Part shown: positions 1 through 951 of the stretch, piece by piece
Position numbering within the stretch: position 1 is the stretch's first letter
Layout: every line of letters begins with the position of its first letter
Source: a phage
Sequence record: OP745096.1
DNA length: 951 nt
Direction: 5' to 3' (one strand)
Translations under genes and position numbers: made by a program
The notes under the pieces: generated by a model
What the model saw: the letters and a program-made list of their open reading frames with translations, nothing else
Database searches by the model: none
What the model was told of the DNA's origin: nothing

Positions 1-951
1 ATGACCACCCTGTGGACCGAAAAATATCGCCCGCAGAGCATGGAAGATTATGTGAGCAAAAACGATGCGCTGCGCCAGAAAATGGAAGAATGGATTAAAA
101 CCGGCGATATTCCGCATATTGGCTTTTTTGGCCCGGCGGGCACCGGCAAAACCAGCGCGATTAAAGTGCTGATTAACGGCCTGGTGCAGAACGGCCATCT
201 GGATCCGAGCGATGTGACCACCCTGAACATGAGCGATGAAGGCATTGATGCGGTGCGCGATAAAATTGATGCGGCGGCGAAACTGAGCTGCTTTGGCCGC
301 TATCGCATTTTTGTGCTGGAAGAAATGGAACAGATGAACCATAAAGCGCAGGGCAGCCTGAAACGCGTGATGGAAGATTATCATGAAAACGCGCGCTTTA
401 TTCTGACCAGCAACGAACCGCATAAAATTCAGAAACCGATTATTAGCCGCGTGCAGGTGATTACCATTGAAAAACATGATATGGAACAGTTTATGACCCG
501 CATTTATAACATTCTGCTGGCGGAAGGCGTGGATCTGAGCAGCGATGATAGCGTGGAACAGGTGCAGAAATATATTAACGCGAGCTATCCGGATTTTCGC
601 AAAACCCTGAACGTGCTGCAGAGCAGCGTGGTGGATGGCAAACTGGTGAAACTGGAAGATAGCATTGAAAACAGCGCGGGCTATCGCACCGCGATTGTGG
701 AAGCGCTGAAAGCGGGCAACATTCGCCAGATGCGCGAACAGATTGTGCAGAACATTCCGGATGATGAAATGGATGCGTTTTTTAGCTATCTGTATCGCAA
801 CGCGGAAATGTTTAGCACCGATGAAATTACCCTGATGAAAATTAAAGTGAAAATTCGCGATGCGGTGGTGAAACAGGCGACCGTGAGCGATCGCGAAATG
901 AACCTGAGCGCGCTGCTGTGCGAAATTGATCTGATTTGCAGCGGCAACATG
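1..951 (+). CDS. Sliding-clamp loader AAA+ ATPase subunit (RFC small subunit / phage T4 gp44-like); 3' end open, no stop codon in window
   Basis: Frame 1 is open across all 317 codons from ATG at nt 1. The hand translation begins MTTLWTEKYRPQSMEDYVSK... and contains, in canonical order and spacing, WTEKYRP, GPAGTGKTS (Walker A), LNMSDEGIDAVR (RFC box), IFVLEE (Walker B-like), LTSN (sensor 1), SRV (SRC-like arginine finger) and PDFRKTLNVLQS (sensor 2). The ~317+ aa length matches the ~320 aa typical of gp44 and RFC small subunits. The family assignment rests on remembered motif knowledge, not a database search. Confidence 0.9.
   Translation, partial: MTTLWTEKYRPQSMEDYVSKNDALRQKMEEWIKTGDIPHIGFFGPAGTGKTSAIKVLINGLVQNGHLDPSDVTTLNMSDEGIDAVRDKIDAAAKLSCFGRYRIFVLEEMEQMNHKAQGSLKRVMEDYHENARFILTSNEPHKIQKPIISRVQVITIEKHDMEQFMTRIYNILLAEGVDLSSDDSVEQVQKYINASYPDFRKTLNVLQSSVVDGKLVKLEDSIENSAGYRTAIVEALKAGNIRQMREQIVQNIPDDEMDAFFSYLYRNAEMFSTDEITLMKIKVKIRDAVVKQATVSDREMNLSALLCEIDLICSGNM
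13..33 (+). other. N-terminal W-x-EKYRP clamp-loader signature (residues W5-P11)
   Basis: Translated WTEKYRP. The EKYRP box is the conserved N-terminal motif (RFC box II) of RFC subunits, T4 gp44 and bacterial gamma/tau. Confidence 0.8.
130..153 (+). other. Walker A / P-loop GPAGTGKT (residues G44-T51)
   Basis: Codons ggc ccg gcg ggc acc ggc aaa acc give GPAGTGKT, which fits the GxxxxGK[TS] consensus and closely resembles RFC GPPGTGKT. Confidence 0.9.
223..258 (+). other. RFC box IV-like motif LNMSDEGIDAVR (residues L75-R86)
   Basis: Matches the clamp-loader motif LN-[AG]-SD-x-(R)GID-x-[VI]R located between Walker A and Walker B. Confidence 0.75.
307..324 (+). other. Walker B variant IFVLEE (residues I103-E108), hhhhEE instead of hhhhDE
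   Basis: A hydrophobic beta-strand followed by two acidic residues at the expected distance from Walker A. It aligns to RFC FLDEAD and gp44 VIDEFD, but the first acidic residue is Glu rather than Asp. Confidence 0.7.
403..414 (+). other. Sensor 1 region LTSN (residues L135-N138)
   Basis: The hydrophobic strand FILTSN ending in a polar Thr/Ser-Asn corresponds to the sensor-1 position in RFC (ILSCN) and gp44 (ITANN). Confidence 0.65.
445..453 (+). other. SRC-like motif S-R-V with the putative arginine finger (residues S149-V151)
   Basis: The PIISRVQVI context matches RFC PIQSRCAIF and gp44 PLQSRCRVI. Arg150 is retained and the Cys is replaced by Val. Confidence 0.7.
589..624 (+). other. Sensor 2 helix in the lid domain PDFRKTLNVLQS (residues P197-S208)
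   Basis: Resembles RFC small-subunit GDMRRAxNxLQ and gp44 FPDFRKTIGELD; Arg200 is the likely sensor-2 arginine. Confidence 0.7.

Follow-up and report, generated by a model that had tools for sequence, protein, structure and literature searches.

The stretch of DNA analyzed here (sequence record OP745096.1; 951 nucleotides, hereafter the window) comes from a phage and encodes, in frame 1, one protein of 317 amino acids. This protein is a clamp-loader AAA+ ATPase of the family that comprises the small subunits of replication factor C (RFC) and gp44 of phage T4, and it has a glutamate, Glu107, at the position of the Walker B aspartate. It is 100% identical over 317 amino acids to the T4 gp44-like clamp-loader subunit of Escherichia phage 121Q (gene 60) and PBECO4, and copies with 100% identity are also present in about 20 other jumbo phages of the Asteriusvirus type, with genomes of 310-385 kb. 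The annotated coding sequence (CDS) is 954 nucleotides long, and the window thus covers the gene in full except for the stop codon. The bases of the window differ from those of the natural 121Q gene, in which L106-E110 are encoded by ctt gaa gaa atg gag. Each amino acid is represented by one codon over all 317 codons (all leucines are CTG and all alanines are GCG), and the window is a back-translated protein, not a natural gene sequence. Since the use of a single codon per amino acid makes any DNA-level signal in the window meaningless, the information resides in the protein only, and the analysis at the DNA level was dropped for this reason.

The family assignment is based on both sequence and structure. 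The protein matches PHROG 168, “clamp loader of DNA polymerase”, over amino acids 3-314 (E=1.1e-78), as well as the Pfam families PF13177 (DNA_pol3_delta2; 48.7 bits, cut-off 27) and PF00004 (AAA; 43.2 bits, cut-off 21.2), while the Gp44_lid profile matches amino acids 161-208 with a score below the curated cut-off. HMMER searches against solved structures retrieved RFC small subunits (E=4e-31) and T4 gp44 (E=4e-19). The AlphaFold2 model has a mean predicted local distance difference test (pLDDT) score of 87.1, and the top 50 Foldseek hits for this model are clamp-loader subunits only, namely RFC-type complexes, the archaeal RFC small subunit and T4 gp44, with a probability of 1.00 and template modeling (TM) scores of 0.60-0.73. 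The model and the Foldseek hits also agree on the three-domain fold of the family, with an AAA+ Rossmann domain, a lid and a helical collar.

A glutamate at the Walker B aspartate position

Codons 103-110 (nucleotides 307-330) read I-F-V-L-E-E-M-E, with E107 encoded by nucleotides 319-321 and E108 by nucleotides 322-324. In the HMMER alignment with the solved RFC small subunits from archaea and yeast, LEEME is placed on LDEAD without gaps and with the top posterior confidence mark, and a MAFFT alignment also places hhhhEE on hhhhDE without gaps. The BLASTP alignment with T4 gp44 pairs E107, E108 and E110 with D107, E108 and D110 of the VIDEFD motif, and further along the same alignment Q117 corresponds to T4 Q118 and K121 to T4 R122. 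In the AlphaFold2 model, a beta-strand formed by residues 102-107 terminates at E107, which is the usual seat of the Walker B acidic residue. The preliminary description of this DNA, made from the sequence alone, had placed E107-E108 on the Asp-Glu pair of the Walker B box, and this placement was confirmed by the translation, the HMMER and BLASTP alignments and the predicted strand. Judged from the alignments, it is confirmed that E107 replaces the Mg2+-coordinating aspartate, that E108 corresponds to the catalytic glutamate and that E110 replaces the aspartate that stands fourth in the DExD box. The protein hence has Glu107 where the family has an aspartate at the first acidic Walker B position, and it retains the catalytic glutamate at the second.

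Distribution of the glutamate in clamp-loader homologs

The frequency of glutamate at this position depends strongly on the sample, and five samples were compared, in which sequences with Glu-Glu and Asp-Glu in the Walker B box are referred to as EE and DE, respectively. Among the 120 nearest protein clusters (clustered at 90% identity), 94 are EE (LEEME, LEEFE, LEECE, LEEAD or LEEAE), which includes every full-length match down to about 40% identity, and the other 26, which are more distant, are DE of the LDEAD type. The best 150 representatives of clusters at 50% identity consist of 48 EE and 96 DE sequences, four sequences with N, A, G or K, and two fragments without an aligned residue, and a set of 135 full-length representatives contains 47 EE and 84 DE sequences and four with N, A, G or K. 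Relatives in IMG/VR viral contigs and in cellular genomes were gathered with a 50-sequence alignment. The IMG/VR sample, for which the search pattern permitted either residue at position 107, includes two EE and 78 DE sequences out of 80. The 80 loci sampled from genomes of bacteria and archaea are all DE; they were picked by their Walker A and sensor 2 patterns, and about 21 of them are archaeal-type RFC small subunits, the remainder being bacterial. A glutamate is also present in the cultured Ralstonia jumbo phage RsoM2USA, which is placed outside the 121Q clade (RLEEMD).

Glutamate at the Walker B aspartate site is thus a phage-restricted minority state, yet widespread across the sequence diversity, and on these alignments position 107 of the 121Q protein is best described as a family variant and not as an anomaly. 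The refuting possibility named in the preliminary description, that glutamate is common here among active homologs, held in part, in that glutamate is common among the homologs (94 of the 120 nearest clusters, and 48 of the top 150 representatives at 50% identity). The suggestion that the glutamate marks a divergent lineage is right, the lineage being the Asteriusvirus-like jumbo phages and their relatives. A search of the literature on glutamate instead of aspartate in the Walker B box retrieved nothing.

The glutamate state is clustered in the set of 135 representatives, such that 37 of the 47 E sequences have an E sequence as their nearest neighbor, where 16 would be expected and 2000 permutations of the labels gave 33 at most. 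The two states are also interleaved: eight of the 47 E sequences lie nearest to a D sequence, and 16 D sequences lie nearest to an E sequence. Parsimony infers about 20 changes of state on a rough neighbor-joining tree of these sequences, a number that is indicative only given a crude tree at 30-45% identity, and several independent switches between aspartate and glutamate are likely. All 94 clusters of the 121Q clade retain Glu107 though the natural codon, GAA, is just one nucleotide away from an aspartate codon, which indicates that purifying selection probably acts on the glutamate itself.

Conservation of the other catalytic motifs

The positions of the motifs are listed in Table 1. The only invariant columns in the 135 diverse representatives are G47, G49, K50, E108, N138, R150 and R200. 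Five of these residues (K50, E108, N138, R150 and R200) are invariant in the 47 EE as well as in the 84 DE representatives. The observation in the preliminary description that the arginine finger and both sensors are intact therefore holds, with R150, N138 (sensor 1) and R200 (sensor 2) all being present and invariant. The third residue of the SRC motif is a valine here, not a cysteine. Homology of the residue at position 107, its conservation, its recurrence in phages and the intact state of the catalytic residues can all be read directly from the alignments.

Table 1. Motifs and domains of the clamp-loader protein and their positions in the window.
Feature	Position (nt)	Strand	Basis
Complete CDS of gp44/RFC-small-subunit-like clamp-loader AAA+ ATPase, stop codon excluded	1..951	+	100% identity to 121Q gene 60; PHROG 168, Pfam, Foldseek
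Walker A / P-loop, G44-P-A-G-T-G-K50-T51	130..153	+	Aligns to GPPGTGKT of RFC; G47, G49, K50 invariant in 135 homologs
S78-D79-E80-G81, RFC-type SDE(r)G box, not Walker B	232..243	+	Aligns with NASDErGID of archaeal/yeast RFC; S78 nearly invariant
Walker B / DExD box variant, I103-F-V-L-E107-E108-M-E110	307..330	+	Sequence, alignments, strand 102-107 in model
Q117, equivalent of T4 Gln118, “central coupler” glutamine	349..351	+	BLASTP to T4 gp44; nearly invariant
K121, equivalent of T4 Arg122	361..363	+	Alignment to T4 gp44
Sensor 1, T136-S137-N138	406..414	+	N138 invariant in 135 representatives and 80/80 IMG/VR relatives; aligns to T4 N139
SRC-type motif S149-R150-V151, R150 as trans-acting arginine finger	445..453	+	R150 invariant; aligns with SRC of RFC and T4
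Sensor 2 segment P197-D198-F199-R200, lid domain	589..600	+	R200 invariant
C-terminal helical collar domain, aa ~225-313	673..939	+	AlphaFold2 helices 225-237, 241-251, 254-266, 275-292, 298-313; PHROG 168 span aa 3-314

Some of the clamp-loader homologs (P0129, P0150, P0159, P0228, P0240 and P0242; 450-678 amino acids) contain inteins, as recognized by the Intein_splicing and LAGLIDADG_3 domains. Their insertion sites fall in the catalytic motifs themselves, either after the Walker A motif (P-loop) or directly behind the Walker B box.

Probable catalytic competence and the context of Glu107

The explanation that we consider best, and probably correct, is that jumbo phages of the Asteriusvirus type, such as 121Q and PBECO4, use the protein as the ATPase (large) subunit of their sliding-clamp loader, and that it works like T4 gp44 and RFC with Glu107 as its Walker B carboxylate, a fixed and selected variant that is tolerated in a differing context. 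Several copies of the protein would form a ring with ATP-Mg2+ bound at the subunit interfaces, as in T4 gp44 and RFC, and this ring would open the clamp and place it on primed DNA. ATP would be hydrolyzed with E108 as the catalytic base and with R150 as the arginine finger that reaches in from the neighboring subunit, while Glu107, instead of an aspartate, would position the Mg2+ ion and its water shell next to T51. The regulatory contact between D110 and R122 in T4 would be replaced by one between E110 and K121, and differences from T4 in the surrounding active site and at the subunit interface may be the reason why the glutamate is tolerated. The activity of the enzyme, the contact of E107 with the Mg2+ ion or its water shell and the existence of compensating changes are inferences.

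An active ATPase appears far more likely than a dead subunit, since neither the EE nor the DE form shows any variation in the other catalytic residues and a single gene was detected per genome. A tblastn search identified one place with a clamp-loader AAA+ protein per phage record, among the records listed, and a search of the first 99 kb of 121Q with a hidden Markov model of the family revealed no further copy. The T4 loader complex consists of four gp44 subunits and one gp62 subunit, and if the complex in 121Q is T4-like, the subunit encoded by the window must be the motor.

Several observations weigh against this explanation. One is the deep mutagenesis of T4 gp44 by Subramanian et al. (eLife 2021; PMC8121543), in which neither Asp107 nor Glu108 tolerated any substitution and in which the D107E change cut the yield of phage at least 200-fold. 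The first residue of the DExD box is also a very highly conserved aspartate in a logo of 1000 phage sequences from the same study (PMC8121543). Furthermore, no obligate residue that covaries with the aspartate or glutamate at position 107 was identified by Fisher tests and contrasts of nearest D/E pairs in the 135 representatives, which gave tendencies only, the nearest pairs being just 38-48% identical. A phmmer search with T4 gp45 and gp62 identified no homolog of either protein in the first 99 kb of 121Q, the last ~250 kb being outside the search. The count of D/E switches, finally, has to be read with the crudeness of its tree in mind.

The strongly deleterious effect of D107E in T4 means that a glutamate is not automatically neutral or generically acceptable at this site. 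Taken together with the natural EE proteins, it suggests that the tolerance to glutamate depends on the sequence context, and such context dependence implies the same kind of epistasis as was stressed in the T4 study (PMC8121543). The fourth position of the box behaves differently in T4, where D110E is tolerated and D110 forms an ion pair in trans with R122 of the neighboring subunit, and Q118 has been described as the “central coupler” glutamine (PMC8121543). In addition, T4 Arg111 contacts the DNA and tolerates no substitution, while other phage loaders use different residues for their DNA contacts (PMC8121543). The counterpart of R111 in the 121Q protein is Gln111 (window 331-333), consistent with such differences in the DNA contacts among phage loaders.

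The tendencies concern positions 46, 51, 54, 110 and 121. In the 47 E and 84 D sequences, given as raw counts that are not corrected for phylogeny, serine replaces threonine at the Mg2+-ligating Walker A position 51 in 19/47 E versus 13/84 D sequences, and alanine is present at position 54 in 17/47 versus 66/84, which amounts to a tendency toward residues other than alanine along with glutamate. There is also a tendency toward a GVQG P-loop, with Gln46 in 18/47 of the E group versus 2/84 of the D group, and lysine at position 121 is found in 22/47 versus 13/84. The 121Q protein itself retains T51, and hence no single compensator is obligatory. Positions 110 and 121 covary in the 135 representatives, such that E110 occurs with K121 in 14/19 cases and D110 with arginine in 90/108 (Fisher p = 1.6e-6, not corrected for phylogeny), and most of the E-E-K cases come from one clade. 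The joint switching of these two positions (window 328-330 and 361-363) suggests a compensation of side-chain length in the salt bridge between the subunits. Tentatively, a co-adapted network may extend over the active site and the subunit interface, with Glu107 as one part of it; the candidate members are E107 itself, the E110-K121 pair in trans that replaces D110-R122 of T4, and the tendencies toward T51S and, at position 54, a bulkier residue. Such a network would render fully functional a change that nearly kills T4, perhaps with Mg2+ being coordinated directly rather than through water. If true, the repeated origin of such a network in phage clamp loaders would represent a natural and recurrent case of epistasis in a catalytic site.

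The ATPase kinetics may differ from those of loaders with an aspartate, as the preliminary description had suggested. An alternative that we consider rather unlikely is that the glutamate represents an adaptive tuning of the kinetics. The longer side chain of Glu107 would here alter the geometry of the Mg2+ coordination, for example from water-mediated to direct, and slow down or re-gate the hydrolysis of ATP, thereby prolonging an ATP-bound state of the clamp loader, the clamp and the DNA that suits the replication apparatus of these jumbo phages. This would agree with the non-neutral effect of D107E in T4 (PMC8121543), with the strict retention of the glutamate in the 94 clusters of the 121Q clade and with the additional split DNA polymerase III (Pol III) alpha subunit that these phages have beside their T4-like machinery. 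The glutamate also tends to co-occur with the E110-K121 changes at the regulatory fourth position of the DExD box and its trans partner, as well as with T51S, a change at the Walker A position that ligates Mg2+. However, aspartate and glutamate have been swapped repeatedly among close relatives without a consistent companion change, a pattern that fits better with near-neutral, context-dependent drift.

It is very improbable that the protein is a non-catalytic or degenerate subunit which binds ATP without hydrolyzing it, like delta' of E. coli or the RFC subunit at the E position, an option that had been considered in the preliminary description. The canonical Walker B aspartate is indeed missing, and D107E in T4 behaves as a loss of function (PMC8121543), but the remaining catalytic residues are all in place and do not vary within the EE group, and the substitution is conservative and appears to be maintained by selection. 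Known inactive subunits are located in complexes with active paralogs; in the bacterial loader, for example, the ATPase is gamma only (PMC1636414). A protein of this class would be expected to have lost several catalytic motifs and to coexist with active paralogs in the same genome; here, all motifs are intact except for the change from aspartate to glutamate, and the listed phage records contain one clamp-loader AAA+ place each. The idea of a misalignment, in which the true Walker B metal ligand is a different acidic residue (D79 or E80 of the SDEG segment, for example), has practically no chance of being right and was rejected on the basis of the HMMER alignment and the AlphaFold2 strand: nothing speaks for it but the acidic residues nearby, while HMMER, BLASTP and MAFFT agree on the placement of hhhhEE on hhhhDE without gaps, the predicted strand ends at E107, and SDEG aligns with the separate SDE(r)G box of RFC.

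Genomic context in phage 121Q

The replication genes of 121Q are located in the first ~50 kb of the genome and include genes for a gp41-like helicase, a primase, UvsX/UvsY/UvsW-like proteins, topoisomerase II and pieces of polymerases. Directly downstream of the clamp-loader gene is gene 61 (L001 12954-13580), the start of which overlaps the clamp-loader stop codon. It is annotated as a “phosphoglycolate phosphatase” and is identified by Pfam as an NT5C/HAD 5'-nucleotidase-like protein. In T4, gene 62, which codes for the small clamp-loader subunit, takes this position. The gene order thus differs from that in T4 in that no gp62 analog adjoins the clamp-loader gene in 121Q.

Group 2 jumbo phages typically have a partner clamp and a fifth clamp-loader subunit (Iyer et al.; PMC7824862). 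No gene for a sliding clamp (gp45/PCNA-like) or a gp62-like protein was recognized by annotation or PHROGs in positions 1-99000 of 121Q, where eight small candidate open reading frames (ORFs) in the replication region match only PHROGs of unknown function. Candidate ORFs of 223-236 amino acids (genes 3, 14 and 26) belong to PHROGs of unknown function. A tblastn search with T4 gp45 gave no Asteriusvirus among the 60 listed of 2153 matching records.

Gene 56 (L001 10390-10908) is an ORF of 172 amino acids that matches Pol III alpha in its NTPase part only (PF07733, positions 16-95), and genes 9 and 16 are further small pieces of polymerases or exonucleases. A split minimal Pol III alpha has been described for the jumbo phages of group 2.2 (PMC7824862), and the fragment encoded by gene 56 is consistent with such an arrangement.

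Implications of a natural Walker B glutamate

In AAA+ clamp loaders, the aspartate of the Walker B box is regarded as practically invariant. A sizeable group of loaders from phages, among them those of cultured jumbo phages of E. coli, naturally has a glutamate with the other catalytic residues intact, and the requirement for an aspartate in the Walker B box thereby emerges as context-dependent. The natural EE backgrounds should be useful for finding the residues that license the swap from aspartate to glutamate. They also call for caution, in that the motif by itself is insufficient for calling such clamp-loader proteins inactive. Glu107 is a variant within a known clamp-loader family and not a new kind of system, and its modest, specialist interest derives from the contrast between the natural glutamate and the outcome of the T4 mutagenesis.

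Comparison with known systems

One of the nearest known relatives is T4 gp44 (PDB 3U5Z/3U60/8UH7), which belongs to the same length class (319 amino acids versus 317 in 121Q), has the same three-domain architecture and is 29% identical in the BLASTP alignment. The two proteins also have in common the Walker A motif, the catalytic Glu108, the glutamine at Q117/Gln118, the sensor 1 asparagine, the SRC arginine finger, the PDFRK sensor 2 segment and the matches to PHROG 168 and Gp44_lid. They differ in the Walker B box, which is EEME in 121Q and DEFD in T4, in the trans partner of residue 110, where R122 of T4 is replaced by lysine, and in the glutamine that takes the place of the DNA-contacting R111. 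They also differ in their surroundings, as neither a gp62 nor a gp45 gene adjoins the clamp-loader gene in 121Q, which is instead followed by the gene for the HAD/NT5C nucleotidase.

The archaeal and eukaryotic RFC small subunits (RFCS of A. fulgidus, 2CHQ; yeast Rfc2-4; human RFC2/4/5) provide the best match both in sequence, among proteins of solved structure (E=4e-31), and in fold (TM of about 0.7). Like the 121Q protein, they have a WxEKYRP box at the N terminus, followed by the SDE(r)G box, the SRC motif and sensor 2. However, all 21 of the archaeal-type RFC-like loci that were sampled read hhhLDE[AS/C]D, and none has a glutamate at the first acidic position.

Homologs with 31-33% identity are found in the jumbo phages RsoM2USA (Ralstonia), XacN1 (Xanthomonas), PA5oct (Pseudomonas) and Atu_ph07 (Agrobacterium), the genomes of which are about 290-490 kb. 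Unlike 121Q and RsoM2USA, the phages XacN1 (LLDEAD), PA5oct (ILDECD) and Atu_ph07 (ILDEVD) retain the aspartate, and the glutamate state is thus not a general trait of jumbo phages.

Outside of the clamp loaders, the superfamily 3 (SF3) helicase Rep68/Rep40 of adeno-associated virus 2 (AAV2) has an hhhhEE Walker B box, in which E378 and E379 are placed to coordinate Mg2+ in the catalytically competent subunits (PMC11780844). AAV2 Rep68 is, like the 121Q protein, an additional-strand catalytic-Glu (ASCE) P-loop ATPase with an hhhhEE Walker B box, but it belongs to the SF3 helicases and not to the clamp loaders, and the resemblance is mechanistic only. By analogy, this precedent shows that a glutamate can serve the role of the aspartate in a working ASCE ATPase.

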